Source: Verrucomicrobiota bacterium
GTDB taxonomy: Bacteria; Verrucomicrobiota; Verrucomicrobiia; Limisphaerales; Palsa-1400
Direction: 5' to 3'
Assembly: GCA_049510745.1 (NCBI GenBank)
Contig: JBEKYR010000004.1
Coordinates: 96,001 to 160,000, forward strand
DNA length: 64,000 nt
The notes under the pieces are model-generated. The model was not told where the DNA came from and ran no database searches. It saw nothing but the letters and a program-made list of their open reading frames with translations. The translations under genes were made by a program, and so were the position numbers. Shown piece by piece: positions 29,068-50,943 of this stretch (the stretch's first letter is position 1; each line of letters begins with the position of its first letter).

Positions 29068-29658
29068 CTTTTACCCTCGTAAAGAGGCTTGGAGCCTCTC
29101 CCGCCGCCGTCGGACCAGAATCGAAAATATACGATTTTGTATACGTTTATTTTACGGTGACTGCTGCCGCCCGATGGGCATGCAAAACCCGGCGCGAGCA
29201 TCCATGCAAAGCGTTGATAATACAGTGCTTATGCAAGGATATCCCAAGGGGCCGCCGGTCGACGGCGGGTGCAACCATGCGGGATTCCTGGGTGCCCTTC
29301 GGCAGAGGCCGAAGATGGTTGCACAGGGGAAGATCTGTCGAAAACCAAATGCGTTGTGCCTTTGGCTGCCGGGAGGCCCACCGCAAGCAAGGACGCGGGC
29401 AGGCTGGCATATGCCAAATGTCATATACTCGTGCCGGGGCGTTTTCCGGCATATTTGCAGGCATAATTTATTAAAGCCGCTTGGATGTTTAACAGTTGTG
29501 CTTGCCTGAACCATTCGGGGCTAGCCGTCAATCGGCGAGTGGTCAGTTCAAACCACGGAGGGGTGCGGTGTCGAGAATCAGTTTCGCTTAATTTCCAAAA
29601 CGAGCCGCTTATGACCCCGTCAACTGCTCCGGTCGCGCGACAACAAGCCACCGCAGGC

Positions 29659-31416
29659 ATGCTCGCGGACGGATCGGGCCGCATCACCGACGCTCTCAGG
29701 CATGCGCGCTTCGGCGGTGCGTCGGCGGTCTTCGCACTGAACCTTCTGATTGGCCTGCAAGTTGGCGCTGCGTCCGACGAAATGCCGACCGTGCGCTTCA
29801 CGGACATCACGAAGGAAGCCGGCATCACGTTCGTTCATGTAAACGGCGCTTATGGCGAAAAGCTGTTGCCGGAAACGATGGGCGGCGGTGTGGCCTTCTT
29901 TGATTTCGATGGCGATGGCAATCAAGATTTGTTGTTTATCAATTCCTGTTACTGGCCGTGGCAAACGCCCGAAGGCAAGCCGCCGCCCACGATGGCGCTT
30001 TATCACAACGATGGCCACGGTCACTTCACCGATGTGACGAAAGGTTCGGGGCTGGACGTGAGTTTTTACGGCATGGGTGTGGCTATTGGAGATTACGACA
30101 ACGACGGTCTGGACGACGTGTTCATCACCGCCGTCGGCGGCAATCATTTGTTTCACAACGAAGGCCACGGGAAATTTCGTGATGTTACCAGGGAAGCCGG
30201 ACTTGCGGGTTCCACCGGAGATTGGAGCACCGGCGCGGCCTTTGTGGACTACGACAACGATGGAAAGCTCGATCTCTTCGTCTGCAATTACGTCCAATGG
30301 TCTCCGGAAATTGATCACGCCGCCACGTTTGTTTACCCAAAAATCGGACGGGCTTACGGTCCGCCCCGCAATTTCGCCGGCACCTTTCCCAAGCTTTATC
30401 ACAACGACGGCAACGGGCACTTCACCGATGTCTCGGCCGCAGCCGGCATCCAAATCAGAAGCCCGGTGACCGGCCTGCCGGTGGCGAAATCATTGGCTGT
30501 GGCACCGGTGGACGTGGACAACGACGGCTGGATTGATCTGATCGTCGCGAATGACACAGTGCAGAATTTCTTGTTTCACAACGAACACAATGGAACCTTC
30601 AAAGAAATCGGGGCGCGTTCCGGAATTGCCTATGATGCCTACGGCTTGACTCGCGGCGCGATGGGAATTGATGCCGCGCGTTTCCGGGATGATGACACAC
30701 TGGGCATCGCAATTGGGAATTTCGCCAACGAAATGAACGCGCTTTATGTGGCTCAGCGGGACGCCCTGGTGTTCGCCGACGAGGCCACCAAGGAAGGACT
30801 GGGTGAGCCCAGCCAAAAACTTTTGAAGTTCGGACTCTTTTTCTTCGATTACGATCTCGATGGGCGTCTCGACGTGCTCACCGTAAACGGACACCTGGAG
30901 CCTGACATCAGCCGTGCGCAGCCGGACCAGCAGTATCGGCAGCCAGCGCAATTGTTCTGGAACCGGGGCGACAGCCTGCGTTCGGGATTCGTGGTGGTTC
31001 CGCCGGAGAAATGTGGTAGTGATCTGCTCAAGCCGATCGTCGGACGCGGTTCGGCCTATGCCGATATTGATGGCGACGGCGATCTCGACGTGGTCATCAC
31101 GCAGATCGGAGGGCCGCCGTTGCTGTTGCGCAACGACCAAAATTTGGGGCACCACTGGATCCGTCTGAAACTGGTCGGGACGAAAAGCAATCGCGATGCG
31201 ATCGGCGCCTGGATCAAAGCGCGCGTCGGCGGCCGGACACTGTGGCGGCAGGTGATGCCTACGCGCGGTTACCTGTCCCAATCCGAACTCCCGGTGACAA
31301 TCGGCTTGGGCAATCTTGACAAGGTGGACAGTCTGGAAATCCATTGGCCCTCGGGCATAATCCAGAAGGTGACTCCGTTGATTGATCGCTTGACGACTGT
31401 GACCGAGATCCCATAA
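29659..31416 (+). CDS. CRTAC1-like FG-GAP/ASPIC-UnbV protein #1 (start uncertain)
   Basis: Repeated D.D.DG..DL motifs, ETMGGGVAFFDFD, GRG.A..D.D.DGD.D, SNRDAIGA, GYLSQS....GLG. Confidence 0.9.
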   Translation: MLADGSGRITDALRHARFGGASAVFALNLLIGLQVGAASDEMPTVRFTDITKEAGITFVHVNGAYGEKLLPETMGGGVAFFDFDGDGNQDLLFINSCYWPWQTPEGKPPPTMALYHNDGHGHFTDVTKGSGLDVSFYGMGVAIGDYDNDGLDDVFITAVGGNHLFHNEGHGKFRDVTREAGLAGSTGDWSTGAAFVDYDNDGKLDLFVCNYVQWSPEIDHAATFVYPKIGRAYGPPRNFAGTFPKLYHNDGNGHFTDVSAAAGIQIRSPVTGLPVAKSLAVAPVDVDNDGWIDLIVANDTVQNFLFHNEHNGTFKEIGARSGIAYDAYGLTRGAMGIDAARFRDDDTLGIAIGNFANEMNALYVAQRDALVFADEATKEGLGEPSQKLLKFGLFFFDYDLDGRLDVLTVNGHLEPDISRAQPDQQYRQPAQLFWNRGDSLRSGFVVVPPEKCGSDLLKPIVGRGSAYADIDGDGDLDVVITQIGGPPLLLRNDQNLGHHWIRLKLVGTKSNRDAIGAWIKARVGGRTLWRQVMPTRGYLSQSELPVTIGLGNLDKVDSLEIHWPSGIIQKVTPLIDRLTTVTEIP

Positions 31417-31439: not shown

Positions 31440-32759
31440 ATGAACGACTACATCGAACGGGTGGTGAATCTGCTCGATCCTGCCCTGAACCGGATCCATA
31501 ACATGACGCTTGAGCAGGCCCAGCAGCGAGTCCTCTCAGGTCAACCCGGCGCTGTGCGGGAAATCGACGGCTCCTTTGCATTGGTTGCGCGCGAGGGCAA
31601 GACCGTTCGAATGGCGCGCTCGATGGACCGGCCGATGCGTTACTTTTTGGCCAAGCGCGCCGAAGGACCGGCGCTCATTGTCGCCGATCGGATCGATGCC
31701 CTATTCAACCAGCTCAGGGCGGAAGGGCTTGAAGGACAGTTCCATCCCAGCTACACGCGAATGGTGCCGGCGCATTATTTGGTTGAACTTCAGCTCATTG
31801 GATGTCCCGATCCCGATCCGATCTACACACGTTATTTTGCGCCGCAACGCGATTCGCTTTCGGCCGATCTGGATGAGATTGGCCGGAGGTACATCGGCGC
31901 GCTGGCGGATGAGATTGCAAAGTGGCTGAGGCGAATTCCGCCGATGGAACCGATCGGCGTCGCGTTCTCGGGCGGCGTGGACAGCGGCGCCGTTTTCCTC
32001 GTGACGTATCATGTCCTGCGGCAATTGGGAATGAGTCCGGGCCGGCTTAAAGCGTTTACCTTGAGTTTGGGCGAGGGGCCGGATTTGCAGCAGGCGCGCG
32101 ACTTTCTGGAACGGCTGGGCCTGGGCTTGTTTCTTGAACCGATCGAAGGCGATCTGGCGTCACTGGACATCACCGAGACGCTTCGCGTGATTGAAGATTA
32201 CAAACCGCTGGATGTGGAGTGCGCTTCGATGGGCCTTGCGCTGTGCGGCGGCGTCCGCGCGCGTTATCCGCAGTGGAAGCATCTCGTTGATGGCGACGGC
32301 GGAGACGAGAACTTGAAAGACTATCCCATCGAGGAAAATCCGGAGCTGACCATCCGCAGTGTAGTGAACAATTTGATGCTTTATCAGGAAGGCTGGGGTG
32401 TGGGCCGCATCAAACATTCACTCACTTACAGCGGCGGGTTGAGCCGGAGCTACTCCCGGACCTATGCCCCGGCCCGCCATTATGGCTTCGAAGGCTTCAG
32501 CCCGTTCACTCGTCCGAACGTCGTTGAAGTGGCGGAGGGCATTCCGTTTGCCGCCCTGACCGGGATGTCGGTGGAAAAGCTTTATGCGCTGAAAGGTGAA
32601 ATCGTCGCGCGCGGCGTCAAGGCCGTCACCGGTCTCGATTTCCCGGTATTTCCCAAGCGCCGATTCCAGCACGGCGCCGTTGACATGGAACGCCTGCGAC
32701 AACACGCTTCCGGCCGGGAATCCGAATACCGAAAGAGCTTCCTGGCGCTTTATAATTAA
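31440..32759 (+). CDS. Asparagine synthetase-like ATP-dependent amide ligase (no N-terminal Cys)
   Basis: IDGSFA...AR relic of the Ntn domain; PP-loop FSGGVDS; DGDGGDE; SPF; K..FQHG. Confidence 0.85.
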   Translation: MNDYIERVVNLLDPALNRIHNMTLEQAQQRVLSGQPGAVREIDGSFALVAREGKTVRMARSMDRPMRYFLAKRAEGPALIVADRIDALFNQLRAEGLEGQFHPSYTRMVPAHYLVELQLIGCPDPDPIYTRYFAPQRDSLSADLDEIGRRYIGALADEIAKWLRRIPPMEPIGVAFSGGVDSGAVFLVTYHVLRQLGMSPGRLKAFTLSLGEGPDLQQARDFLERLGLGLFLEPIEGDLASLDITETLRVIEDYKPLDVECASMGLALCGGVRARYPQWKHLVDGDGGDENLKDYPIEENPELTIRSVVNNLMLYQEGWGVGRIKHSLTYSGGLSRSYSRTYAPARHYGFEGFSPFTRPNVVEVAEGIPFAALTGMSVEKLYALKGEIVARGVKAVTGLDFPVFPKRRFQHGAVDMERLRQHASGRESEYRKSFLALYN

Positions 32760-32807
32760 GGCGGAAACATCCGGTTGAACGACGGATGATTTGGAAACGC
32801 CGCCTGG

Positions 32808-33767
32808 TCATTTGCCGCCGCACTCCGGACACTGGACCGCGAGCTCAGTTTGTTGTGACAGATTGACGGCGTGAATTCGTTGGCGCCGTTTTTCCAGGCA
32901 CGCCGGGCATTTTGAAAACCGGCGCAGGTCCCAAGTGTCGGCGAAGACCCGTCCGCTTCCTGCAATATTGAGAGCCAGCTCTTGAGCTTTTTCCAGGGTG
33001 GAAAGACGCGGCGGCGCGTACTCACCCGTCTCCATTAAGCGCTCCAGCGCGCCGTTTCCGGCCCGGGTCGGAATCAGCGAAACCACGTTCGCACCGCAGT
33101 GGAACGCGAACTCGGCGGATTTGACTGCCCAATCCAGCCCTTCTGTTTCGTCCATAAACGGCGGTTTCACGAGGACGAAGGCGCGGACGAAGATTGCGTT
33201 CTCGCGCAGGAATTCCGCCGCGCGAACAAAATGGTCCGGGGAAAATCTCTTGTTCAACCGGGGCAGCACTTGCGGATGCACCGTTTCCAACCCCAGCGCA
33301 ACTTCGAGCGAGCCGGGCAGCAAGTCGCGAAATCTCAGGGCCTTTTCCCCCACCAGTCGCGGGTGTGACTCAATCACGACGTGCTCCGCCGATGACACTG
33401 CCAGCGCAATCGCGGAATAATCCCCGGGCGGTATGGCGGCGGCGTCGAAAAAACTGCCGCTGTTGTACAGTTTGATCTGCTTCGGGCTGCCCTCCAGCCG
33501 CGACAGCGCGTAACGGATCTGTCCGGGAATCGCGCCGAGGGGAACGGTTTGGGTCGTTGTGTTCTTCCACAAATCGCACATCAAACAACGCCACGGGCAT
33601 TCCTTGTTCGTCAGCCAAATGACGCCCGAACTCACGATGCGCCCCGCGCGTGTCCGCTCCTGCTCGAGGAAAAAGCCGTGCGGCCTGAACGGATCGACGC
33701 GGTTGCGCTGCGGGCGAAGCGCGGTAATCCATGCAGTCTGCTCGCGGTCTGAAAAAACTGGATGCAT
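32808..33767 (-). CDS. Radical SAM enzyme, RaSEA/archaeal Elp3-like subfamily
   Basis: CPWRCLMC triad; KLYNSGSFFD, ESHP, EVALGLET, LVKPPF motifs; C-terminal CPAC...CPEC. Confidence 0.85.
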   Translation of the reverse strand: MHPVFSDREQTAWITALRPQRNRVDPFRPHGFFLEQERTRAGRIVSSGVIWLTNKECPWRCLMCDLWKNTTTQTVPLGAIPGQIRYALSRLEGSPKQIKLYNSGSFFDAAAIPPGDYSAIALAVSSAEHVVIESHPRLVGEKALRFRDLLPGSLEVALGLETVHPQVLPRLNKRFSPDHFVRAAEFLRENAIFVRAFVLVKPPFMDETEGLDWAVKSAEFAFHCGANVVSLIPTRAGNGALERLMETGEYAPPRLSTLEKAQELALNIAGSGRVFADTWDLRRFSKCPACLEKRRQRIHAVNLSQQTELAVQCPECGGK

Positions 33768-33870
33768 TGCCAAAGGACGGTGATTCTATCCGGCTCGGAA
33801 CCGTTTGAAAATGAGATTCGCCCGTGCCAGGGTTTTAGGGAAGCATCAGCCCCGATATCAGCGGTTGAAA

Positions 33871-33950: not shown

Positions 33951-35039
33951 ATGAGAATCAACGAGACCCTGGGAAAACGCGGAATCCGATGGCTGTTGGG
34001 ATTCGTCTTTTGGACGTTCATCGGCCTGTCGTTTGCCTTTCAGTTTTATATTTCCAGCGCGAAGGCCGGTCTGGATGTGAGCTGGAGGCAGGCGGTCAGC
34101 TACGCGCTGGGCGATTGGTATGTTTTTGCCCTGTTGTCCATTCCGGTCACCTCGCTCGCGCGGCGGTTTCGTTTTGAATCCGGAACCCGGGTCAAAAGCG
34201 CCGCCGTGCATGTATCCGGCAGCATCGCGTTCTCGCTGGCGTACATGGTTTTGCGCGCCTGGGTTGGGAGATGGCAAAGCGGCGGCAGTTTCTCCGAGGC
34301 CTTCCGGCCGTTGCTGGTGAAGACCTGGCATTTCAACCTGTTGATCTACTGGGTCATTGTTGCAGTGAGTTTCGCTTTTGACTATTACCGCAAATACCGC
34401 GAACGCGAGTTAAGCGCGGCGGAACTGCAGAAACAACTCGCCCACGCGAAACTGCAGGCGCTGCAAATGCAACTGAACCCGCATTTCCTCTTCAACAGCC
34501 TCCACTCGATCTCCGCGCTGATGCACGAGGATGTCGAGCGGGCCGACAGCATGATTGCAAGGTTGAGCGACCTGTTGCGCGCCGCGCTCGACAGCTCTGA
34601 CACACTGGAAGTCCCCTTGCGCCAGGAGTTCGATCTGCTTGAACGATACCTCGCCATCGAACAGATTCGTTTCGGTGACCGGCTGGATGTGAAGATCGAT
34701 GCGCCCCCGGAAATCCTGGACGCGCAGGTGCCGAATCTGATCCTGCAACCGCTGGTCGAAAATGCGATCCGCCACGGCATCGAGCCGCGGGCAAAGCGGG
34801 GACGCGTTGAACTGCGCGCTCAACGGGCGGACGGCACCCTGACCTTGGAAGTGTCTGATAACGGGCCGGGATTGCCGTCCCGCGAACCGATCAACGAAGG
34901 CGTCGGCTTGTCCAACACGCGAACGCGATTGCGGACCCTTTACGGCGAGGCCCACAGTTTCGAGCTTCGCCAGTCGCCCGAAGGCGGACTGCTCGTCCGC
35001 CTGACCATTCCTTTTCGAACCGCGAACAAACCCTTATGA
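33951..35039 (+). CDS. LytS/YehU-family sensor histidine kinase
   Basis: N-terminal TM helices; QLNPHFLFNSL, LQPLVENAIRHG, V.DNGPG, GVGLSN.R.RL. Confidence 0.95.
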   Translation: MRINETLGKRGIRWLLGFVFWTFIGLSFAFQFYISSAKAGLDVSWRQAVSYALGDWYVFALLSIPVTSLARRFRFESGTRVKSAAVHVSGSIAFSLAYMVLRAWVGRWQSGGSFSEAFRPLLVKTWHFNLLIYWVIVAVSFAFDYYRKYRERELSAAELQKQLAHAKLQALQMQLNPHFLFNSLHSISALMHEDVERADSMIARLSDLLRAALDSSDTLEVPLRQEFDLLERYLAIEQIRFGDRLDVKIDAPPEILDAQVPNLILQPLVENAIRHGIEPRAKRGRVELRAQRADGTLTLEVSDNGPGLPSREPINEGVGLSNTRTRLRTLYGEAHSFELRQSPEGGLLVRLTIPFRTANKPL

Positions 35040-35794
35040 AGATCCGCACCCTCATCGTAGATGACGAATCGCTGGCGCGCAACCGGCTCCGCCAATTGCT
35101 CGAGAACCAACCGGACGTTGAGCTCGTTGGTGAATGCGCGGACGGCCGTGAGGCGGTGGCGACGATCCAGAAACTGAAACCAGACCTCATTTTTCTCGAC
35201 ATCCAAATGCCGGAACTGGACGGGTTCGGCGTGGTGCAAGAGATCGCCGCGGACTGCGCACCGGTCGTGGTGTTCGTGACGGCCCATGACAAATTCGCGT
35301 TGCGCGCTTTTGAGATCCATGCGGTGGATTACCTGTTGAAGCCATTCGATCGCGAGCGGTTTCAGAAAGCATTGCACCGCGCGGTCGAGCACGTAAAGCA
35401 TCACGGCGACGGCGAACTGATCGAGCGGCAGGCCGCTTTGATCGCCGAGCTGAAGTCCCCGAAGATCACCGACCGTCTGGCTGTGAAATCGGGCGGGCAC
35501 ATTGCCTGGTTGAAGCTTGAGGACGTGGACTGGATCAGCGCCGCCGACAATTATGCCGAGTTGCACGTTGGCCCGAAATCGCATTTGCTGCGCGAGACGC
35601 TGGCCAGCTTGGAAACAAGACTGGCGCCCGACAAGTTTGTCCGCATCAGCCGCTCCGTCATCGTCAATCTCGGGCGCATCAAAGAACTGAAGCGGTTGTT
35701 TTACGGTGGTTACGAACTGATGCTTCAGGACGGCACCAAGCTGACCTTGAGCCGGCGTTATCGGGATAAGTTGCGGCAACTGGGCATTGATTAA
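35036..35794 (+). CDS. LytTR-family response regulator
   Basis: IVDDE, FLDIQMP, FVTA, DYLLKP receiver domain; FVRISRS.IVN...L.LSRRY LytTR domain; 4-bp overlap with the kinase. Confidence 0.95.
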   Translation: MKIRTLIVDDESLARNRLRQLLENQPDVELVGECADGREAVATIQKLKPDLIFLDIQMPELDGFGVVQEIAADCAPVVVFVTAHDKFALRAFEIHAVDYLLKPFDRERFQKALHRAVEHVKHHGDGELIERQAALIAELKSPKITDRLAVKSGGHIAWLKLEDVDWISAADNYAELHVGPKSHLLRETLASLETRLAPDKFVRISRSVIVNLGRIKELKRLFYGGYELMLQDGTKLTLSRRYRDKLRQLGID

Positions 35795-37453: not shown

Positions 37454-40324
37454 ATGGGAGATGCTGAAATAGGACCCGCCAACGGACCGGCCAGGAAGAA
37501 ATATGTGCGCGCCATTGGCCCGCGCCTGCGCGTGCTGTTGTATTTCATTTTCGGCCTCATTGCCATCCTGGCCGCCAATTCCGTCTATCTCAGCGCCGTC
37601 ACCTTTCTCGAATGGCTCAAGAGCGACCCCGACACCAGCTACCAAAACTGGTTCTACATGGTGATGTTTGGAACGCACCTTGGCCTCGGTCTGTTGATCG
37701 TCCTGCCCATTGTCGTCTTCGGCGCCTTGCACATCAAAAATGCGCATGACCGCCCGAATCGCCGCGCCGCCAAGGTCGGCTACCTGCTTTTCTTCACGAC
37801 GCTGGTGGTCCTGGTCACCGGCCTGCTGTTGACGCGCGTTGACCTCTTCCATTTCAAGAACGTGGGGCTGAAGGACCCGCGCCTGCGTTCCATCGCCTAC
37901 TGGGCGCACGTGATCACACCTCTTGCGGCGGTCTGGCTTTACATCCTGCATCGGCTGGCTGGACCGCGGATCAAATGGAAACTCGGCTTGCGCTGGGGTG
38001 GCGCCGTCGGGGCGCTCACGGTTGGCATGGTGTTGTTGCACACGGCGCATCCGAGGAAAAACCAAATCGGCTCAACCGAAGGCAAAAAATATTTTGAACC
38101 GTCGCTGGCCCGGACGGCATCGGGGAATTTCATTCCGGCACGGACCTTGATGATGGACAGCTACTGCTTGAATTGCCATCAGGACGCGTACAAGGGGTGG
38201 TTTCACAGCGCGCACCATTTCAGCTCGTTCAACAACGCGCCGTATCTCTTCAGCGTGCGCGAGACCCGGCAGGTTTCACTCAAGCGCGACGGCAATGTGA
38301 AGGCAGCCCGCTGGTGCGCCGGGTGCCACGACGTGGTGCCATTCTTCAGCGGCGCCTTTGACGACCCCAATTTCGACGATGTGCATCATCCCACGGCTCA
38401 GGCGGGAATCACTTGCACCGCTTGCCACGCGATCACCCACGTCAACAGCACAAAAGGCAACGCGGATTACACCATTGACGAGCCGATTCACTATCCGTTC
38501 GCCTACAGCACCAATCGTGTGCTGCAATACGTCAACCAGCAATTGGTGAAAGCCAAGCCCGAGTTCCACAAGAAGACGTTCCTCAAGCCGTTCATGCGCA
38601 GCGCCGAGTTCTGTTCCACCTGCCACAAGGTCAGCATCCCCGGCGATCTGAATCACTACAAGGATTTCCTGCGCGGCCAGAATCATTACGACACCTATCT
38701 GTTGAGCGGTGTCTCGGGGCACGGCGCGCGCAGCTTTTACTATCCCGATCAGGCGAAACAGAACTGCGCCGCCTGCCACATGCCGTTGAAAGAATCCGAA
38801 GACTTCGGCGCGAATTTTTTCAATCCGACGAACCCTTCCGCCCGCTACATTCACGATCATCTTTTCCCGGGAGCCAACACGGGCATTCCATTCATTCGCA
38901 GCGACACCAACACCCTCAAAGCCGAGGAGGAATTCCTGAAAGGTTCGTTGCGCGTCGATATCTTCGGCCTCAAGGAAGGCGGTTCGATTGATGATCCGTT
39001 GACAGCGCCCTTGCGGCCCAAGGTGCCGATGCTCAAACGGGGACAGCGCTATTTGCTCGAAGTGGTGCTGCGCACGATGAAGGTCGGCCATCCGTTCACC
39101 CAGGGCACGGTGGATTCAAACGAGGTATGGGCGGATGGCAAAATAAAAAGCGGCGGAAAAATCGTCGGGCGCAGCGGCGGGCTTGGACCTCACAGGGAAG
39201 TGGATCCGTGGTCTCATTTCGTGAATGTCTATACGCTCGATCGCGACGGCAACCGCGTGGATCGCCGAAACCCGCAGGACATTTTCACGCCGCTCTACAA
39301 TCACCAGATTCCGCCCGGCGCGGGCCAGACTGTGCATTACGAATTCGTCGTTCCCGAAGATCAACGCGAGCCGCTGACTCTGGAGGTGAAACTGCAATAC
39401 CGCAAGTTCGACACGATCTACATGAACTACGTGTTCAACACGAACTATACCCGCGGCGCGCCGTTCACGGTGACGAATGACCTGCCCATCGTAACGATCG
39501 CCATGGACAAGATCACTTTCCCCGTCGAAGGCGTCAGCACAGTCGTAACCAATGAAGATTCCAAAATTCCGGGGTGGCAGCGCTGGAATGATTACGGCAT
39601 CGGTCTGTTTTCCGAGGGGAACGTCGGCGCCGAAAAAGGCGAATTAATCCAGGCCGAAGCGGCTTTCGAGCAGGTGGAGAAGCTCGGCCGAGCCGACGGT
39701 CCGGTGAATTTGGCGCGGGTTTACTTCAAGGAAGGCCGCCTGGACGACGCTGTCGCCGCGCTGCGACGCGCCGCGAGCTTTGATCCACCGGCTCCACGAT
39801 GGACCGTGGCGTGGTTCAACGGCTTGGTGGACAAACAAAACGGTTTTCTCGACAAAGCCATTACCGAATTCCGCAGCATTCTGGAAGATCGTTACGACGA
39901 ACTCGAACAACGGCGCTTCGATTTCAGCAAGGATTACGAAGTTCTCAACGAACTCGGCCAGGCTTGCTACGAACGGGCAAAAATGGAGCGCGGCAATCCG
40001 GAACGACAAAAGGAGTTTTTGAATCTCGCTGTCGAATCCTTCAAAAAAACCCTGGCGATTGATTCGGAAAACCTGACGGCTCACTATACGCTGGCGCTGA
40101 TTTATGCGCAGCTCGGCGACGAGGAGAAGGCCTCCTACCATAGGCAAGAGCATAGGAAGTATCTTCCGGACTACAACGCGCAAGACCGGGCGGTCAGCCT
40201 CGCCCGGCGCGCGGACCCCGCCGCTGATCACGCCGCCCAGGCAACAGTGATCTATCCGCTGCAACGGCCCGGCGCACCGGAACTGGATGAGTCCTATCGC
40301 GCGTTGCCGGCGGCTCTGAAATGA
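37454..40324 (+). CDS. Membrane-bound pentaheme cytochrome c with N-terminal cytochrome b-like TM domain and C-terminal TPR
   Basis: 5 TM helices with 4 His; CLNCH, CAGCH, CTACH, CSTCH, CAACH; TPR helices. Confidence 0.88.
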   Translation: MGDAEIGPANGPARKKYVRAIGPRLRVLLYFIFGLIAILAANSVYLSAVTFLEWLKSDPDTSYQNWFYMVMFGTHLGLGLLIVLPIVVFGALHIKNAHDRPNRRAAKVGYLLFFTTLVVLVTGLLLTRVDLFHFKNVGLKDPRLRSIAYWAHVITPLAAVWLYILHRLAGPRIKWKLGLRWGGAVGALTVGMVLLHTAHPRKNQIGSTEGKKYFEPSLARTASGNFIPARTLMMDSYCLNCHQDAYKGWFHSAHHFSSFNNAPYLFSVRETRQVSLKRDGNVKAARWCAGCHDVVPFFSGAFDDPNFDDVHHPTAQAGITCTACHAITHVNSTKGNADYTIDEPIHYPFAYSTNRVLQYVNQQLVKAKPEFHKKTFLKPFMRSAEFCSTCHKVSIPGDLNHYKDFLRGQNHYDTYLLSGVSGHGARSFYYPDQAKQNCAACHMPLKESEDFGANFFNPTNPSARYIHDHLFPGANTGIPFIRSDTNTLKAEEEFLKGSLRVDIFGLKEGGSIDDPLTAPLRPKVPMLKRGQRYLLEVVLRTMKVGHPFTQGTVDSNEVWADGKIKSGGKIVGRSGGLGPHREVDPWSHFVNVYTLDRDGNRVDRRNPQDIFTPLYNHQIPPGAGQTVHYEFVVPEDQREPLTLEVKLQYRKFDTIYMNYVFNTNYTRGAPFTVTNDLPIVTIAMDKITFPVEGVSTVVTNEDSKIPGWQRWNDYGIGLFSEGNVGAEKGELIQAEAAFEQVEKLGRADGPVNLARVYFKEGRLDDAVAALRRAASFDPPAPRWTVAWFNGLVDKQNGFLDKAITEFRSILEDRYDELEQRRFDFSKDYEVLNELGQACYERAKMERGNPERQKEFLNLAVESFKKTLAIDSENLTAHYTLALIYAQLGDEEKASYHRQEHRKYLPDYNAQDRAVSLARRADPAADHAAQATVIYPLQRPGAPELDESYRALPAALK

Positions 40325-40331
40325 TTGAGTT

Positions 40332-42197
40332 GTGAACAATAAGCCATCGCCTCCAACTTCACCCGAAACCGAAGAAGAACTGGTTCACGCCGATGACAGA
40401 ATCATTGGCAAAGCGGTTCGCTGGTCTCTGTGCGGGCTTGTTCTCGTTGCCGTTGTGGTGGGAGCAACCATCCTGGCACTCAAACGAAAACCGGCGCCGC
40501 GCCCGCCGCAGATCACCCGGTTGAGCGCTCCCGTCGCTCCCGAAACGCCGCAGGCCGGGATTCCGGTCGCGAAGTTCACGGATATCACCAAAGAAGCCGG
40601 CATCACGTTCGTTCACGTCAACGGCGCTTATGGCGAAAAACTGTTGCCGGAAACCATGGGCGGCGGTGTGGCCTTCTTTGATTTCGATGGCGACGGCAAC
40701 CAGGATCTGTTGTTTATCAACTCGTGTTACTGGCCGTGGCACACGCCCGAAGGCAAGCCCGCGCCCACTATGGCGCTCTATCACAACGACGGGCATGGTC
40801 ACTTTACGGATGTGACAAAGGGTTCAGGGCTGGACGTGAGTTTTTACGGGATGGGGGTTGCTATCGGAGATTACGACAATGACGGGCTGGACGACGTGTT
40901 CATCACGGCCGTTGGCGGCAACCATTTGTTCCATAACGAGGGCCACGGTAAATTCAAGGAGGTCACCGCGGAGACGGGTGTGGGCGGTTCAACCAACGAC
41001 TGGAGCACGTGCGCCGCGTTCTTTGATTATGACAATGACGGCAAGCTTGATCTTTTTGTCGGCAATTATGTCAAATGGTCGCGCGAGATTGATGCCGAGG
41101 TCGGCTACAAAATTGACGGCCGCACGCGCGCTTACGGTCAGCCGATGAATTTCCAGGGCGCTTTTCCGCGATTGTATCACAACGACGGCCACGGCCGTTT
41201 CACCGAGGTTTCCGCCCAAAGCGGATTACAGGTCAAAAATCCCGCGACCGGCGTGCCCGCCGCCAAAACTCTCGGCGTCGCCCCGGTGGACGTCAACAAC
41301 GATGGATGGGTTGACCTGGTGGTGGCCAACGACACTGTGCCGAATCTTGTTTTCATCAACCAGCACGACGGGACTTTCAAAGAGATCGGCGCAGAATCCG
41401 GCGTTGCCTTTGACAGCTACGGCAACACGCGCGGCGCGATGGGCATTGACGCGGCTTATTACCGGAACGACGGCAAGCTGGGCATCGCCATCGGCAATTT
41501 CGCAAATGAGATGACGGCTCTTTACGTCGCGCAAAATTCGCCGGCCACTTTTTCCGACGAGGCCATCACCGAAGGCGTCGGTCCGGACAGCCGGCGGTTC
41601 CTTAAATTCGGCCTGTTCTTTTTCGACTACGACTTGGACGGAAGGCTCGACCTGCTCACCGCCAACGGGCATTTGGAAGAAGAGATCAGCAAAATTCAAG
41701 CGAGCCAGACCTACGCGCAACCGGCGCAATTGTTTTGGAACGCCGGCGATCAGAGCCGTGGTTGCTTCGTTGTCGTTCCACCAGAAAAGGCCGGCGCCGA
41801 TCTTTTCAAGCCGATCGTCGGGCGCGGTTCAGCCTTTGCTGATATTGACGGCGATGGCGACCTGGACGTTGTGCTCACGCAGGTGGGAGGTCCGCCGTTG
41901 CTGCTGCGCAATGACCAAGATCTTCACCACCATTGGATTCGCCTGAAACTCGTTGGCACGAAAAGCAACCGCGACGCCATCGGCGCCTGGATCACGGTGC
42001 GCGTCGATGGCCGCACCCTGCGGCGCCAAGTCATGCCGACGCGCAGTTATCTCTCCCAATCCGAATTGCCGGTCACCATTGGCCTCGGCGACGCGGTGAA
42101 ACCAGACGACGTCGAAATTCTCTGGCCTAGCGGGATCAAGCAGAAAGTCGAAGCGGTGGCGGTGGATCACCCGATGGCGGTCACCGAGCGTCCGTAG
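40332..42197 (+). CDS. CRTAC1-like FG-GAP/ASPIC-UnbV protein #2 (N-terminal TM anchor)
   Basis: Same motifs as #1, of which it is a close paralogue. Confidence 0.9.
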   Translation: MNNKPSPPTSPETEEELVHADDRIIGKAVRWSLCGLVLVAVVVGATILALKRKPAPRPPQITRLSAPVAPETPQAGIPVAKFTDITKEAGITFVHVNGAYGEKLLPETMGGGVAFFDFDGDGNQDLLFINSCYWPWHTPEGKPAPTMALYHNDGHGHFTDVTKGSGLDVSFYGMGVAIGDYDNDGLDDVFITAVGGNHLFHNEGHGKFKEVTAETGVGGSTNDWSTCAAFFDYDNDGKLDLFVGNYVKWSREIDAEVGYKIDGRTRAYGQPMNFQGAFPRLYHNDGHGRFTEVSAQSGLQVKNPATGVPAAKTLGVAPVDVNNDGWVDLVVANDTVPNLVFINQHDGTFKEIGAESGVAFDSYGNTRGAMGIDAAYYRNDGKLGIAIGNFANEMTALYVAQNSPATFSDEAITEGVGPDSRRFLKFGLFFFDYDLDGRLDLLTANGHLEEEISKIQASQTYAQPAQLFWNAGDQSRGCFVVVPPEKAGADLFKPIVGRGSAFADIDGDGDLDVVLTQVGGPPLLLRNDQDLHHHWIRLKLVGTKSNRDAIGAWITVRVDGRTLRRQVMPTRSYLSQSELPVTIGLGDAVKPDDVEILWPSGIKQKVEAVAVDHPMAVTERP

Positions 42198-42671: not shown

Positions 42672-43271
42672 CTAAAACTCCAGCGGCACACGGACGATCA
42701 GGCCGCCCATGACATCGCCGGTCTTGAAATCCTTCCTCGGGTTGGCGGCATTCCGATTATGGCAATCGGCACAGGCGTTGACGGTGGCCGCCTCGGCATA
42801 GACGGCGGTGAAATAACGGCGGCCGCCGAGCGATTCCCCGGCATAATAATTCGTGCCGGGATGATCGGCGACGAATCGCAAGCCGGTTTTTTCCGTGTCG
42901 GTTTCCGGTCCGTTCTTTGGATTGATCGGCCACAGGGAGCGAAGGACGTAGTGGAACTCAGCACCCTGCTGTTGAACGGCTTCGGATGCCTGGCGCAGCA
43001 TCCGGGCGTGCATGGCCATGAGGACTTCGTCCGGCCCCGGCGCGCCGCCCGGCGGGCAGGCTTGCAAGACCAGCCGGCCATAGGTTTCCTGGTCGGCGGC
43101 AATCACGGCATGAAGAGCATCGGCCATCTCCTGCGGCTTGAATGCCACCGCCGGTTCCGGCGGCGGCGGGGCCTGTTTGGCTGGTTGCTGCCCGCAACCG
43201 GCGCCGGCCAGGAAAACCAGGCCCGCCAGGGTGAAACCGGGGAAATTGGCTGCTGTTTTTATTTTGTTCAT
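42672..43271 (-). CDS. DUF3365 (Tll0287-like) monoheme lipoprotein
   Basis: Lipobox-like AGAGC; LRSLWPINP.N.P, CADCHN, F..GDVMGG. Confidence 0.85.
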   Translation of the reverse strand: MNKIKTAANFPGFTLAGLVFLAGAGCGQQPAKQAPPPPEPAVAFKPQEMADALHAVIAADQETYGRLVLQACPPGGAPGPDEVLMAMHARMLRQASEAVQQQGAEFHYVLRSLWPINPKNGPETDTEKTGLRFVADHPGTNYYAGESLGGRRYFTAVYAEAATVNACADCHNRNAANPRKDFKTGDVMGGLIVRVPLEF

Positions 43272-44380
43272 GGTCTTTGTTCGTTGTTCGCTTCCGCAGG
43301 AAGGAACCGCCCGCCATGCGCTTTTAACAACTGAAGGTTTGCCTCTCGATTGCCCTGCGAGTCAAAAACAAAAATTCCGGACGCGCCGGTGAAGGAAAAG
43401 TCAATTGGAAAAGCCTCATGCGCCGGACGACCGCCGCTTTGCCGCAGTATGCGGATCAACAACGCCGCCGCGTCGTAAGCCGCCGCAGCCGTCGCGTCCG
43501 GCTCGTGGCCGAAACGCCCGCGGAAGGCGGCGGTGAAACGGTGGAACGCGGCAGTAGCATCCGGTTCCAAAACGGGGGCGGATACTACAAATCCTTCCAT
43601 GGCGTCACCCGCGGTTATCGCGAAGTCAGCCGCGCGCAACCGGCCCGGCCCGGCCAGCGTGCCGGTGAACCCGGCGGTTCGCAATGCTCTCGCCAGTTTC
43701 CCGGCCGCCGCCGGATCCAGCCAGAGCAGAACGGCGTCGGGATGAGTCGCCAGGATTTTTTTGTCAAGCCGGGCCAGGTTTGTGAACGACGGATTCAGGT
43801 CAATTATTATCTCAAGGGTGCAATCACTGTTGGTCGCGGTTTCCCCAAGGTCGCGGGCCGATTCGCGTCCGCCGCGTCCGTCGCGAACCACGGCGGTCCA
43901 ATGGCGGGCAGGGATGCGGGTGAACAGCGTTTTTGCCTCCTCGATGGTGCGGGGAACAACGCGCGCCATCCAAGGGACGCCTGTGTGACTGACAGAAGAG
44001 TCGGCACAGAGAGACATCACCGGCACAGCCGTGCGGCCGGACACCTGCAACACCAAATGCGTGGCCGCGCCATCCGGCGGCGCAATCAAGCCCAGCGCGC
44101 CGTCGTCGGTGACCATCCGGGCGGCTTCCACGCCGTCCGCGCCCCATTGCCCGGAACGTCCGCGAATCACCAGGCTCGCGCGCGGTCCGGGAGATTGATT
44201 GGCCACCTCCACACCGAGCGTCGCGCCCTCACGCAGGCCGGCGGCCTGGGGTTCCTCGGGCGGGACGAGCAGGCCGATGACGAGGTTGGGATTTTGCGCA
44301 ACCGCTTCACCCGCATGCAAACACGCCGCGCCTGCCATCAGGGCAATGGCGGCAACGGTGGAACGCGCGTTGAAGTGCAT
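43268..44380 (-). CDS. Type-1 periplasmic binding protein (LivJ-like), orphan
   Basis: Signal peptide; IGLL.P...G..L.VE.AN, F...F..RFG..P...AA.AYDA, FTGASG...FD..GNR. Confidence 0.85.
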   Translation of the reverse strand: MHFNARSTVAAIALMAGAACLHAGEAVAQNPNLVIGLLVPPEEPQAAGLREGATLGVEVANQSPGPRASLVIRGRSGQWGADGVEAARMVTDDGALGLIAPPDGAATHLVLQVSGRTAVPVMSLCADSSVSHTGVPWMARVVPRTIEEAKTLFTRIPARHWTAVVRDGRGGRESARDLGETATNSDCTLEIIIDLNPSFTNLARLDKKILATHPDAVLLWLDPAAAGKLARALRTAGFTGTLAGPGRLRAADFAITAGDAMEGFVVSAPVLEPDATAAFHRFTAAFRGRFGHEPDATAAAAYDAAALLIRILRQSGGRPAHEAFPIDFSFTGASGIFVFDSQGNREANLQLLKAHGGRFLPAEANNEQRP

Positions 44381-44383
44381 CCC

Positions 44384-45763
44384 TTACTTCGCCGCGGTCT
44401 TGACCGGCTTTGAGGTCGGCTCCGGGAAGTAATGCCAGCGGCCTTGCCGGTATTCGGCATAGACAATCGGCGCGATGTTGTCCCAGCGGCCGTCAAAGCG
44501 CATGTGACCGGTCACGCCGTTGTATTCGTCCGTGGCGGCCATCACGTCGCGGATGCGGTAGCGGTTCGGCCCGGCCTTCTTGATCGCGGCGATGAGCATT
44601 TGCGCGCCGTCGTAGCTGAAACCGGCGTAGATATCCGGCTTGATGCCGTAACGCTTTTCGAAGCGCGCCACAAAACCCGTCCACGCCGGGTCGGTTTTGT
44701 CCGGGTCGAAAAAGTAGGCTGCGGATGTTCCTTCCGCCGCCAAGCCGGCGAGTTTGACGAAATCCGGGTCCACGAGCCGGTCAAAGCCGTAGAACGCGGC
44801 CTTCACGCCCACCGCCCGCAGTTGCGCGGCCGCCGGGCCGGTCTCGGCGGCATTGCCCCAAAAGACGACGGCCTGAGGGTTCGCCTGTTTGATGACGGCC
44901 ACCTGCGTGTCGAACGTGCGGTCGCCGTCCTTGAAATTGATTTCCTGCAACACCGGATGGCCCAGCCGGCGCACGGCGTCCACAAAGGGCCGGACGCCCA
45001 TGCGGCCGGGACGGCTGTTGCCACGCAGCACCACGATGTTGGTCAGCCCGCGCTCCTCCACCATCAGCCGGGCCAGCAGATAACCCTGCTGCCGGTTGTC
45101 GGGAAAAACGCGCAACAGCCAGGGAATCTGCGTCTCGGTCAGCGAGGGATCGGGGTCGGAACAATTCACCATGAACGTCTCGATTTTCAACACCGCGCGG
45201 AGCGCGACGTGGGTGGCGTCGCCGTCAATCGTGCCGAGGAATGCCAGCACATTAGTGTCGGCGAATTCGACCGCGATGTTCGCGGCGCTGCCCCACTGCG
45301 GCGAGTCGGCTTTGGCGATAAGCTCGAAAGGCAGTTCGCCGGGCTGGCGCGCGGCATTGGCTTCCTCGAGGGCCAGCGTGACACCGCGTTTGGTCATTTC
45401 GCCGCGCGCGGCTTCCGGGCCATCGGGTGCCGGACTGAGCAGCCCGACCCGGAGCGTTTTCAAGTCGGGCGGAGCGGGATAATCCCGGCCTGGCCCGTAG
45501 AAATTCAGGCGCGTCAGCCAGTAACGGTAATAAGGTTCGATGTTGCGATAGGGCAACATTTCCTCCGGCACGTTTCCGTAGAAGGGATAGACACCTCCGT
45601 AGAACGGATAGCCCTTGTCGGGCTTCTGCGCTGCTGGCGCGCCTGGCGGCAGGACCGGTTCGGCGATATAGTTGGTGTTGGTATCCTCCTTGTCTTCGTA
45701 GGCGCACCAACCGGCCGGCGCGACGGCCAGCGCACAGATCGCCATCAGGAATACTTTTTTCAT
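44384..45763 (-). CDS. Type-1 periplasmic binding protein (LivJ-like) with Tyr/Pro-rich N-terminal extension, orphan
   Basis: G..LALEEANA, LTE...PW..R..P, F...F..RYG..P......SYDG, GVTG...FD. Confidence 0.85.
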   Translation of the reverse strand: MKKVFLMAICALAVAPAGWCAYEDKEDTNTNYIAEPVLPPGAPAAQKPDKGYPFYGGVYPFYGNVPEEMLPYRNIEPYYRYWLTRLNFYGPGRDYPAPPDLKTLRVGLLSPAPDGPEAARGEMTKRGVTLALEEANAARQPGELPFELIAKADSPQWGSAANIAVEFADTNVLAFLGTIDGDATHVALRAVLKIETFMVNCSDPDPSLTETQIPWLLRVFPDNRQQGYLLARLMVEERGLTNIVVLRGNSRPGRMGVRPFVDAVRRLGHPVLQEINFKDGDRTFDTQVAVIKQANPQAVVFWGNAAETGPAAAQLRAVGVKAAFYGFDRLVDPDFVKLAGLAAEGTSAAYFFDPDKTDPAWTGFVARFEKRYGIKPDIYAGFSYDGAQMLIAAIKKAGPNRYRIRDVMAATDEYNGVTGHMRFDGRWDNIAPIVYAEYRQGRWHYFPEPTSKPVKTAAK

Positions 45764-45772
45764 GGATGCCTC

Positions 45773-46354
45773 CTATCCAACGAGAATGGCAATGGCTTCA
45801 ATTTCCACGAGCAGATCACTCCGGCAAAGTCTCCCCTGAACCCCGGTGCTGGCCGGGAACGGATCCAGTCCCAGCGCGCGGTAAAACTCGTTGCGGATGG
45901 AATTGAACTCGCCGTAGTCGCGCTCGATGTCGCGGATGTAGCAGGTCGTTCGGACGACGTCATGCCAGGTGGCTCCCTGGCTTTCGAGCAGCCCGGTCAG
46001 GTTGTGATAGGTGCGCCAGAGTTGGGCGCGGAAATCGCCGGGATACATCGTCTCGCCATCCGGGCCGACGCTGGCGGTGCCACTGAAGTAAAGTTGCGTG
46101 ATGCCGCCGGGCAGGTCCACGCGCAGGCCGCGCACGAAGGCCGCGCCATATTCCGGGGCTTCGTTCAAGACCTTCGGCTCGGCGATGGCTTTCTTGCCGA
46201 CCGGGGTCCGGCCTTTTGGCAAACGCTTGATGGCGCGGGGAGGGGATGGCTCGCAGGGAGGCAGCCCGAGCGCGCGGCGCTCAATTTTTTCCGCGTCGGA
46301 ATAGTTGACAACCCGGTCCGCTTGACTGCCGGGAATGACAAAGTTCGTTTTCAT
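45773..46354 (-). CDS. YjgF/RidA-superfamily protein resembling the C-terminal domain of FkbO/Hyg5 chorismatases
   Basis: AF.RG, SGTAS, GD..AQ..RT..N, LCR.DLLVEIEA; GAAAGG SD upstream of this ATG. Confidence 0.8.
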   Translation of the reverse strand: MKTNFVIPGSQADRVVNYSDAEKIERRALGLPPCEPSPPRAIKRLPKGRTPVGKKAIAEPKVLNEAPEYGAAFVRGLRVDLPGGITQLYFSGTASVGPDGETMYPGDFRAQLWRTYHNLTGLLESQGATWHDVVRTTCYIRDIERDYGEFNSIRNEFYRALGLDPFPASTGVQGRLCRSDLLVEIEAIAILVG

Positions 46355-46383
46355 AATGTTCGTTGACCTTTCTTGAATCATCG

Positions 46384-47517
46384 TTATTTGGCGTCCGCGA
46401 CCTTGGCGGGTTTCGGCGGAGCCGCGAAATAGGCGCGCGACAGCCCGTCGGAAGTGGCGAACCAGGCTTCGTGGTCGTCCACCCAGATGCCGAGGACAAA
46501 ATCATTCGGCAGCTTCGTGGACATCGTCCGTGTCTCGACGGTCTGGCCCGGGCGCGTGATTTCAACGATGCCTTCGCCCTTTTCGTTGGTGCGATAATTG
46601 ACCCAGGTGTCGCCGTCGGTCACGGAAAGGCCGCGGTCGGTGCCCACCCAGGCGACACGGCCATGCGGCCAGATGAAGTTGACGAAATTGGAGACGAGCG
46701 GCGATTTTTTCTCCTCCCAGGTGCGCCAGCGCGAGCCGTCGTAGCGCGCCATGCCAAAATAGGTGGCCTGCCAGAGAATGCCGTCCTCCCAGGCTACCCA
46801 GGAAGTGATGTCGCTAATCGGGCCGGCGTCATGCACCAACTCGAAATGAAAATCGCGGTCGGGGTCGCGGTGTTCCTTGAAAATCTTATTGGCCAGTTCG
46901 TATTCGAGAATGCCGCCGCCCCACACCCCCACGAAGATGCGGTCTTTCGCGCCTTTCACCGCATAGACCCACGGCTCGTGCATGACCGTGTTGCTCTGGT
47001 CAAAGATGGACCATTCCCCGGTCTTGAGATTCAATGCTCCCAAGCCCGCAGCGGTGGCGACCCAGAGCGTGTCGTCCAGGATGTCCACTCCATAAACCAC
47101 GTTGTTCGGCAGGCCGCTGTCGGTTTGCAGATAGCTGGTGATGCGTCCGGCGCTGTAGCGATTCAACCCGCGCATCGTGCCGATCCACATGTCGCCGGTG
47201 CGCTTGTCTTCCACCATGCACAAAACCATCTTGTGGCTCAGGCCGTCTTCGAAGCCGATGCGGCGAAACTTTCCGTCCTCGCGCACCAAGACGCCGTTGT
47301 AGGTGCCTACCCAGAGCTTGCCATCGCTGGCGCGCAAGACGCAGTGGGCCTTGTGGGTGGGCATTCCGTCCTTCATCTGGAAGTTTTCAAACCGGTCAAT
47401 CAACGGGAAGGGCAGGTCGTCCGTGCCCGTTGCCGCGGCGCGGACGCAGGGCGCGACCAGGAACAGGCAGAACGCCAACCCGGCCGTGAGGATTAGTGAA
47501 CTTAACTTGGTTTTCAT
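46384..47517 (-). CDS. Secreted beta-propeller made of two-component-regulator propeller repeats
   Basis: Signal peptide; repeated GL....V..+..D..G.+W+GT..GL motifs; no kinase domain. Confidence 0.85.
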   Translation of the reverse strand: MKTKLSSLILTAGLAFCLFLVAPCVRAAATGTDDLPFPLIDRFENFQMKDGMPTHKAHCVLRASDGKLWVGTYNGVLVREDGKFRRIGFEDGLSHKMVLCMVEDKRTGDMWIGTMRGLNRYSAGRITSYLQTDSGLPNNVVYGVDILDDTLWVATAAGLGALNLKTGEWSIFDQSNTVMHEPWVYAVKGAKDRIFVGVWGGGILEYELANKIFKEHRDPDRDFHFELVHDAGPISDITSWVAWEDGILWQATYFGMARYDGSRWRTWEEKKSPLVSNFVNFIWPHGRVAWVGTDRGLSVTDGDTWVNYRTNEKGEGIVEITRPGQTVETRTMSTKLPNDFVLGIWVDDHEAWFATSDGLSRAYFAAPPKPAKVADAK

Positions 47518-47536
47518 GGTATGCATTCCTCCGGGT

Positions 47537-49483: not shown

Positions 49484-50943
49484 TTCTCAGATTTGGCCTT
49501 GGCCAGCTTTGCCGTTTCCAAACTCAGGCACGGCACAGGCGCGTTCACGGCCAGCGGGCGATGGTTGTGCGGAGCGCGATTGGGAGGTGGGTGACAGCCG
49601 ATGCAGGAGCGGTTTTCGCCCGGACGCACCCACATGAAGGGACGCTGCCGCCGAAGGGTTCGTCCGCTTTCGCCAATCACTTCAAAGCCCAAAGGCATAT
49701 CCGCCGGCACTTCGGCGAGAAATGAGCCGTCGGCTTGCACCGGAACCTCTCCGAGCGGCCGGACAATTCCCGGCGAGATCTCCGCGGTCACACGGACGCG
49801 AGTTGCCGAAGGCGGCGGCCCATCATTGTCAGAAGAGTCCCGCGTGAAGTTCGCGTCGAGACAAAGAATTTTTCCGGTCCGCTTTGTGAAATCCAGAGTT
49901 GAAAGCCGTCCCAGGGGCGGGCGATGAGCAGAGACTTCGACCGCCTCCAGAAAGCCCCACTTCGGATCGGCAACGAGTGGCGCGCCTAAAGTGGTGGCGC
50001 TTGCGCTGAGGCGGAACACCGCCGGTAAAGTCCAATTGCCCGGCAGCCCCGCGGCGCAAGCCAGGAAATCCTCATCGCCGGCCGGTTGCACCGACAGGAG
50101 ACGCGCCATCACGTTCGAGAGCAACAGCGAACCATCCTGGCAAGGTCGTGCCATGCGGACGAATTCCGCCAGACCCTCCGGCGAACCGGAGCCGGCTTTG
50201 GGAACGAGGAAGGCAACCCGACCGCCGGAAATCTGACGGGGTTGTGCCATCAGTGACACCGGAAGTTTTTGTTCGGCGAACTCTGTAATCTCCGTGCCGT
50301 CGTTGTTGATCGTGTAAAGCGCGCATTCAGGCGCGGAGCCCGGCGACGGACTTTGCAGGGCGGCGAACAGAATTCTGCCATCCGAGAGCACCGTGGAGTC
50401 GAGGACCGGACTCGAACCGAACGTGAGCTGGCGGGGCTGGCCGCCCGGCGATTGCACGAACAGCGCCGACGGGCGCCGGCTTGCTTTTGCGCCATCGATT
50501 TTGGGCACCGGTGAAATGAAAACGAGACTCCCGTTGGGCAAGAGTGTCGGACTCATGGCGCCGCCAGGCATCGAGGTCAAAACGCGCGGACCCCAGCCTG
50601 CCAATAGCGTTTCATAAATTTGCCAGTCGCTTGCGGCTGTGGCCTTGCCGACGAAGAAAATGCGCTCTCCGTCATACGAAACAACCGGACTGCCGGCGGC
50701 AACGAGAGATTCCGAAAGGATTTTCTCGTGTCTTGCGTCAAAAGGCGCTTCCCGGAGAACCACGCGGCTGCCGATTGGATAACGCGCCTCGAGAACATCC
50801 GTTGCCGGATGAATTGCGGCCGAAGCCGGCGCCTTCGTCAAAACCAGCGAGCCGGATGGCGCGGGCCGGTCGCATCCGGCGCCAACGAGAAGGAGCAGAC
50901 CAACGGCAGAGCATTCGATTTGGGAAATACGTTCCGCTTTCAC
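49480..50943 (-). CDS. Hydrazine synthase alpha-subunit-like lipoprotein (propeller + HZS-alpha middle domain + one heme)
   Basis: Lipobox-like GAGC; P.VSYDG..I.F, DGRILF, LYTINNDGT; LGEVPVQADGSF..EVPAD.P..F......G...W+RPGENRSCIGCH. Confidence 0.8.
   Translation of the reverse strand: MKAERISQIECSAVGLLLLVGAGCDRPAPSGSLVLTKAPASAAIHPATDVLEARYPIGSRVVLREAPFDARHEKILSESLVAAGSPVVSYDGERIFFVGKATAASDWQIYETLLAGWGPRVLTSMPGGAMSPTLLPNGSLVFISPVPKIDGAKASRRPSALFVQSPGGQPRQLTFGSSPVLDSTVLSDGRILFAALQSPSPGSAPECALYTINNDGTEITEFAEQKLPVSLMAQPRQISGGRVAFLVPKAGSGSPEGLAEFVRMARPCQDGSLLLSNVMARLLSVQPAGDEDFLACAAGLPGNWTLPAVFRLSASATTLGAPLVADPKWGFLEAVEVSAHRPPLGRLSTLDFTKRTGKILCLDANFTRDSSDNDGPPPSATRVRVTAEISPGIVRPLGEVPVQADGSFLAEVPADMPLGFEVIGESGRTLRRQRPFMWVRPGENRSCIGCHPPPNRAPHNHRPLAVNAPVPCLSLETAKLAKAKSEK

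Follow-up and report, generated by a model that had tools for sequence, protein, structure and literature searches.

A pair of neighbouring genes in a 64,000-nucleotide stretch of a Verrucomicrobiota genome (GenBank assembly GCA_049510745.1, contig JBEKYR010000004.1, positions 96,001 to 160,000 of the forward strand; the whole stretch is called the window here) encodes a ligase with the fold of asparagine synthetase B (AsnB) and a radical S-adenosylmethionine (SAM) enzyme resembling archaeal RaSEA. Both enzymes are intact and of known folds, six phyla keep them together in one order, and from its sequences the pair is best read as a real, widespread and uncharacterised module for a new variant of radical nitrogen transfer. 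No described pathway accounts for it, and a small molecule is probably the recipient of the nitrogen; at a probability of about 40% the ligase adds an organic amine and the radical SAM enzyme then breaks a C–N bond such that the nitrogen stays on the small-molecule substrate. No description of the ligase and radical SAM pair was found in the open-access literature.

Linkage of the two genes in other genomes had been set by the first-pass annotation, made from the window's letters alone, as one of two tests of its reading, and such linkage is what is seen. A scan of species genomes confirmed at least 569 of 599 candidate stretches, and the best 80 of these, drawn from Verrucomicrobiota, Bacteroidota, Acidobacteriota, Planctomycetota, Armatimonadota and Abditibacteriota, are the basis of all counts out of 80. 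Both genes are present at 72 of the 80 loci, always as ligase then radical SAM on one strand with a gap of −1 to 381 bp. At three of the eight loci without a ligase the contig extends less than 3 kb upstream; of the five other genomes, four encode the ligase elsewhere. Among 61 relatives the ligase occurs in 19 genomes and the radical SAM orthologue in 18 of these; the radical SAM gene lies within 1.5 kb and is co-directional at 11 of the 18 non-self ligase loci, and at the others it is on another contig, 3.8 kb off, or missing, with one relative (G201) having only a distant paralogue. In a sample of 251 genomes from the phylum of an Acidobacteriota locus the two genes are found in the identical 22 genomes, which include one (G334) flagged as unpublished. 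Presence is patchy, since among 201 genomes sampled from the phylum of the window only one other has an orthologue.

The window departs from this arrangement in that the two genes are convergent, with 48 bp separating their stop codons. An independent public contig covers positions 32485-34098, including both junctions, with zero differences, and three further runs each bridge one junction, so that the convergent layout is not an assembly error. Misassembly as its cause was rejected; the layout is a real local rearrangement and an exception, relatives carrying the pair as a co-directional operon. No inverted repeat flanking the radical SAM gene was seen among the 25 longest of 71 repeat pairs, and the GC content at third codon positions of this gene (0.71) is the same as that of its neighbours.

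The ligase has SGGVDS (the PP-loop) at residues 177-182 and GDGGDE at residues 285-290, and the first-pass description of it as having these motifs and no N-terminal catalytic cysteine is borne out. Its open frame is 441 amino acids in all, so no upstream cysteine can be added, and a Met-Cys start occurs in none of 119 homologues (439-499 amino acids). A PF00733 (Asn_synthase) match restricted to residues 170-301 (E 3.6e-10; 40.5 bits, the curated cut-off being 21) places the protein in the superfamily. An AlphaFold model (pLDDT, the predicted local distance difference test, 89.1; from a 60-row alignment) matches beta-lactam synthetase 1mc1 with Z 24.7 (root-mean-square deviation 3.9 over 374 residues, 17% identity) and E. 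coli AsnB 1ct9 with Z 23.9, and beta-lactam synthetase, human ASNS and E. coli AsnB are tied as fold matches (Z 23.7-24.7). Because the model aligns only from target residues 36-43 (40 in beta-lactam synthetase, 39 in AsnB), the first ~38 residues, which are the opening strands of the N-terminal nucleophile (Ntn) domain together with Cys1, are absent. What is left of that domain keeps QFHPxYxRMxPAH and GCPDP, invariant or nearly so across 60 sequences of 48-86% identity, and is truncated but not decayed. Cys122, His112, His326 and Lys406 are invariant in the same alignment, the last of which is the presumed counterpart of the AsnB catalytic lysine. Membership of AsnB itself was rejected, with 33 bits on TIGR01536 against a cut-off of 267.1, no N-terminal catalytic cysteine and an incomplete Ntn glutaminase domain. 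A profile comparison with Bacillus AsnB aligned only the stretch from PP-loop to GDE, at a probability of 9%, no match to the ligase was found in plasmids, and an ESM Atlas lookup gave unnamed or generically named clusters only.

All the radical SAM motifs that had been listed at first reading (C57xxxC61xxC64, KLYNSGSFFD, ESHP, GLET and KPPF) are present in the second enzyme, and its convergence with the ligase had been rightly seen. Two C-terminal cysteine pairs (C287xxC290 and C313xxC316) are shared by 93 of the 116 family members and by 36 of 36 archaeal RaSEA-type proteins, a comparison set of metagenome genes fetched by a motif, of whose 71 matching frames the 36 complete ones were kept. 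The window enzyme is homologous over its full length to these 36, at 23-31% identity, and RaSEA (TIGR01210) is the best NCBIfam match of all 116 family members (best E 2.4e-38). On that model the window protein scores 111.9 bits against a cut-off of 212.15, whereas the 14 archaeal-type proteins that were scored reach 291-392 bits, all above it. Against PDB sequences the family profile has one significant match, the queuine lyase 6P78 (E 6.3e-9 over 140 positions; E 0.68 by single-sequence comparison), and 50 of the 116 members match the MnmL/YtqA model weakly. The best score in the window genome for archaeal tRNA-guanine transglycosylase (TGT; TIGR00432) is 70.5 bits against a cut-off of 350, no separate search for ArcS having been made. 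RaSEA membership was rejected on the profile score, a separate clade in the tree described below and the lack of an archaeal TGT above cut-off; judged by sequence the enzyme is RaSEA-like and not RaSEA.

Three relatives of this enzyme have been characterised, and in the available parts of the sources RaSEA forms a complex with ArcS and makes archaeosine from preQ0-Lys (PMC11298593), queuine is turned back into preQ1 by QueL (PMC11570991) and YhcC/MnmL converts cmnm5s2U to nm5s2U in vitro by removal of the carboxymethyl group (bioRxiv 10.64898/2026.05.18.725915). As described there, all three strip an alkyl group from a nitrogen that stays, two of them after an amino acid has been attached, and so C–N cleavage by the window enzyme is plausible.

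In the proposed mechanism the ligase and radical SAM enzyme would form an obligate cytoplasmic two-step module, for which co-occurrence and gene order are as given above. The ligase would adenylate a carboxylate of a small-molecule substrate and condense the acyl-adenylate with an organic amine, for example an amino acid, to form an amide; the fold, the motifs and the absence of Cys1 suggest an organic amine and not glutamine-derived ammonia. The radical SAM enzyme would then abstract a hydrogen beside the amide nitrogen and the C–N bond would break, leaving the nitrogen on the substrate and letting the carbon skeleton go as an aldehyde or imine, as kinship with the three characterised relatives would predict. 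The pair would thereby work as ArcS-RaSEA and MnmEG-MnmL do, although its ligase is not homologous to theirs and tRNA is probably not involved. A flavin halogenase may be part of the pathway in most genomes, which would point to an aromatic or heteroaromatic small molecule as substrate, and in the window genome the module sits within a CRTAC1/hydrazine-synthase-like cluster. The substrate, the amine and the order of the steps are what we infer. A complex prediction for the ligase with the radical SAM enzyme gave a score of 0.00 and so no answer, and is counted neither for nor against binding.

A number of observations weigh against a radical nitrogen transfer of this kind. Of 49 positions invariant in the radical SAM family, 33 differ from RaSEA (E56, D65, N102, H135, R235 and W279 among them); the 16 that are common to it speak for the proposal. 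In a quick maximum-likelihood tree of 63 rows (18 of the 36 archaeal-type and 27 of the 116 family proteins, with long outgroups; a careful search was unfinished) the family is one clade (SH-aLRT 87) and the RaSEA-type proteins another (94), and neither lies inside the other; with a weak support of 83, RaSEA joins three other bacterial lineages, and the family lies outside that group. These lineages score 111, 173 and 198 bits on TIGR01210, and the latter two, from unrelated biosynthetic clusters, score higher, so that the reaction cannot be read off from resemblance to RaSEA. In the structural comparison queuine lyase, HydE and biotin synthase (BioB) share the same Z of 16.9. The three characterised relatives all work on substituents of nucleobases and, in the available parts of the sources, amide-linked alkyl cleavage is reported for none. 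Finally G206, a close relative with a 93% complete genome and the nearest relative of the cluster, has the order CRTAC1-ligase-kinase, in which the kinase gene comes straight after the ligase gene, and a match to the radical SAM enzyme was not found there. The original placement of the radical SAM enzyme near RaSEA thus holds as to the top profile match of every member, but not as to closeness, the family being a clade of its own with other bacterial families nearer to RaSEA; the C–N cleavage suggested with it draws on kinship to queuine lyase and MnmL/YhcC, and is weakened by the separate clade and by a resemblance that leaves the reaction unfixed.

The three other RaSEA-like lineages have surroundings of their own. 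The 198-bit protein is encoded in a Bacillus plasmid cluster (L255:4734-8924) with type II ketosynthases and a full-length AsnB, and this is an independent AsnB plus RaSEA-like neighbourhood. The 173-bit protein belongs to a Streptomyces linear-plasmid cluster (L090:14926-26072, and L091) with a P450, a serine hydroxymethyltransferase, GT9, a carbamoyltransferase and RfaE2. The 111-bit protein (L135:1468-2553) represents a further bacterial family with at least 120 relatives that are 56% identical or closer, and in G201 a gene of this type is convergent with a methyltransferase.

Among other explanations the one to be taken most seriously, although fairly unlikely, is a different radical chemistry, in which the ligase product is cyclised, rearranged or cross-linked in a pathway to a halogenated natural product or cofactor without transfer of nitrogen. 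The separate radical SAM clade with its own invariant residues agrees with this, as do the Streptomyces and Bacillus settings of RaSEA-like proteins, and AS-like enzymes, in the available parts of PMC13622209 and PMC13060819, carry out amidation, lactam, hydrazide and nitrile chemistry and act on short overlooked peptides. Yet the three characterised neighbours all N-dealkylate, and a search near the genes for a conserved short precursor peptide was negative: among 1946 short open reading frames (ORFs) at the 80 loci, covering ATG-start ORFs within 2.5 kb, no family reaches more than 6 loci, and the best (6 of 80) overlaps an UnbU-like gene in antisense. A reversal of the two steps is unlikely; here the radical SAM enzyme would free a primary amine by N-dealkylation, as in salvage by QueL, and the ligase would then acylate or cyclise it. 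QueL, as its source in part describes, acts alone on a free small molecule, and it shares ExH with the window enzyme; the top-ranked fold match of the ligase, beta-lactam synthetase, closes an intramolecular amide; and one genome reached through a locus (G271) has the radical SAM gene and no ligase match. However, G206 keeps the ligase alone and the radical SAM orthologue is found alone in none of the 61 relatives and none of the 251 Acidobacteriota-centred genomes, for which reasons the ligase-first order fits slightly better.

That the pair serves the exported CRTAC1 and haem proteins encoded nearby, by modifying a protein or maturing a cofactor, seems improbable. CRTAC1/ASPIC-UnbV genes do occur at 53 of the 80 loci, and an 896-amino-acid database protein (P0116) joins the radical SAM enzyme to a CRTAC1/UnbV domain, this being a single sequence and possibly a read-through artefact; but 27 loci, some with short DNA, show no CRTAC1 match, and hydrazine-synthase-like genes are found without the pair. 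A new bacterial tRNA or nucleoside modification is very improbable. It would sit well with relatives that act on tRNA or its bases, as the partly available sources have it, and PP-loop enzymes often modify tRNA. Against it stand the patchy presence (19 of 61 relatives, 22 of 251 genomes), the absence of an archaeal TGT above cut-off in the genome and of an RNA-binding domain in a Pfam search, a mean net charge of −3.4 in the family against +3.2 in archaeal RaSEA, and the partnership with a halogenase. Hardly credible is an ordinary ammonia-dependent asparagine synthetase with incidental neighbours: the ligase is the only PF00733 protein in the window genome and databases name it asparagine synthase, but its TIGR01536 score is far under the cut-off, its structural identity to ASNS and AsnB is 16-19%, and it is strictly paired with the radical SAM gene.

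To return to the proposed nitrogen-transfer module, its usual third gene and its surroundings in the window lay outside what the first-pass annotation could see. A flavin-dependent halogenase gene directly follows the pair at 40 of the 80 loci; its best matches are CtcP and PltM (E ~1e-43), and GLKRG is found in 34 and WxWx[ILV] in 35 of 35 sequences. Among the 61 relatives (12 genomes) and in the Acidobacteriota-centred sample of 251 (19 genomes) this halogenase occurs only where the pair is present. The window genome, which is 94% complete, was searched for it without a match and has an unlinked halogenase-family gene on another contig. Downstream of the halogenase, some loci from Acidobacteriota have an NMT1-type ABC transporter (L077:12342-16013).

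Genomes with the pair tend to have either this halogenase or a hydrazine-synthase-like haem complex. Of 50 genomes chosen from the 80 for spread, 21 lack the halogenase and all 21 have the hydrazine-synthase-like beta-gamma gene, against 8 of the 29 that bear the halogenase; pooled over three samples (thresholds E<1e-70 or 1e-100, with G334 among the 59) the figures are 29 of 31 halogenase-less and 11 of 59 halogenase-bearing carriers. The pattern fits a functional substitution, or a capture of the pair by the haem cluster followed by loss of the halogenase. That the pair makes a nitrogen-bearing aromatic intermediate, which either the flavin halogenase or a non-anammox hydrazine-synthase-like haem complex then oxidises or halogenates, is quite unlikely. 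Fourteen of the 31 halogenase-less carriers are Bacteroidota of a single lineage. Against two alternative systems speak the few independent events (about 3-5, with halogenase state changing ~5 times on the tree, three of these forced), a test on independent pairs that is not significant (3 starred pairs, median p 0.5; none opposite), and the occurrence of hydrazine-synthase-like genes without the pair in 11 of 14 cases in the Acidobacteriota sample. On this last count a dependence of the complex on the pair was rejected; its genes are a possible downstream partner of the pair. A word search for the halogenase and haem-complex pattern returned nothing.

Features of the window around the ligase and radical SAM genes
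Feature	Position	Strand	Basis or remark
CRTAC1/ASPIC-UnbV FG-GAP propeller protein, directly upstream of ligase	29485..31416	+	PF13517, PF07593
AsnB/beta-lactam-synthetase-fold ATP pyrophosphatase, putative amide ligase	31440..32759	+	439 aa; PF00733, fold match, invariant residues
RaSEA-lineage radical SAM enzyme, putative C–N lyase	32808..33767	-	319 aa; TIGR01210, queuine lyase profile match
LytS/LytT-type sensor kinase and response regulator, divergent from radical SAM gene	33951..35794	+	in 12 and 14 of 80 loci
Multihaem cytochrome-TPR protein and second CRTAC1 protein	37454..42197	+	
Two periplasmic binding proteins, Rid-fold protein, propeller protein; hydrazine-synthase-like module	43268..47526	-	
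Hydrazine-synthase-like beta-gamma fusion (three CxxCH), alpha homologue, CRTAC1 gene	47537..52679	-	

The first CRTAC1 gene is given as its longest ORF, the true start being probably further in. The hydrazine-synthase-like fusion and alpha homologue match NF052342 (E 1.6e-51) and NF052339 (E 1.1e-13), both far below cut-off. Clusters of clade III hydrazine synthase homologues, as described in the available part of PMC12758564, have the same layout as the window cluster, with CRTAC1, alpha, beta-gamma with one extra haem motif and binding proteins in common; in the main text of that source the words 'radical SAM', 'asparagine' and 'halogenase' never occur. The Rid-fold protein (45773-46381) is a weak match to FkbO/Hyg5 chorismatases (E 5e-6), and a DAHP synthase is found in the same cluster at 17 loci (the Bacteroidota ones were inspected); together these hint at a chorismate-derived aromatic substrate. 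Beyond the haem genes a 1092-amino-acid TPR and FG-GAP protein with a long unannotated C-terminal region (52935-56213) is conserved at 46 of the 80 loci. In 13 Acidobacteriota loci (L076:6637-7494 and 12 others) an RnfD-like membrane protein lies between CRTAC1/UnbV genes, an arrangement presumably resembling the enediyne UnbU/UnbV pair.

The cluster starts just after a tRNA-Lys(CTT) gene at 28991-29067, of whose 3' part a 45-bp copy of 93% identity, not called as a tRNA, lies 70 kb downstream (G000:C4:195086-195130), which suggests an old integrated island. There is no GC shift across the suspected island, and no integrase was recognised among ORFs of at least 280 amino acids at 155-200 kb of the same contig (C4). 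Upstream of the tRNA, by inspection, are a dipeptide-epimerase-like gene of the enolase family (27484-28569) and an Xaa-Pro peptidase-like gene (25110-26240), for which cluster membership was not found, the enolase-family gene matching none of the 80 loci.

In tRNA modification, radical SAM enzymes are known to transfer nitrogen by cutting an amino acid that was attached beforehand (ArcS-RaSEA and MnmEG-MnmL), and the pair would, if the present reading is true, use this logic with an unrelated ligase on a substrate other than tRNA. The pair is common in bacteria of soil, peat and sediment, and, as its two or three soluble enzymes are small and keep one order, it is directly testable by heterologous expression. 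The near-complementary link with a halogenase or a hydrazine-synthase-like complex offers a route into the function of these haem complexes, and should the two prove to be alternative systems this would help to show what such hydrazine synthase relatives do and establish radical nitrogen transfer in a small-molecule form.

Compared with known systems, the ArcS-RaSEA system of Euryarchaeota has a radical SAM enzyme homologous over the full length to that of the window, C-terminal cysteine pairs included, and the ligate-then-cleave logic proposed here; its partner is the TGT-derived ArcS, whereas the window has an AsnB-fold PP-loop enzyme in a host without an archaeal TGT above cut-off, and a halogenase is the usual third gene of the pair. 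QueL (6P78) has NSGSFF, ExH and GxET in common with the window enzyme, RaSEA having ESRP at the ExH position, and cleaves C–N on a small molecule; it is a shorter (251 amino acids) salvage enzyme, and the structural match to it stops at residue 281, before the C-terminal cysteine region. With MnmEG and MnmL/YhcC (TIGR01212) an amino acid is attached first and the radical SAM enzyme then removes its carbon part, which is the logic proposed for the pair, but the target is U34 of tRNA, the radical SAM enzyme is distant from the family (best E 3e-8) and the installing enzyme is unrelated. Beta-lactam synthetase, carbapenam synthetase, AsnB/ASNS and TsnB9 have the two-domain fold (Z 19.6-24.7), PP-loop and GxGxDE of the ligase, at 12-19% identity and with the opening Ntn residues that the ligase has lost. 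The PltM and CtcP flavin-dependent halogenases resemble the product of the usual third operon gene, for which the window genome gave no match.

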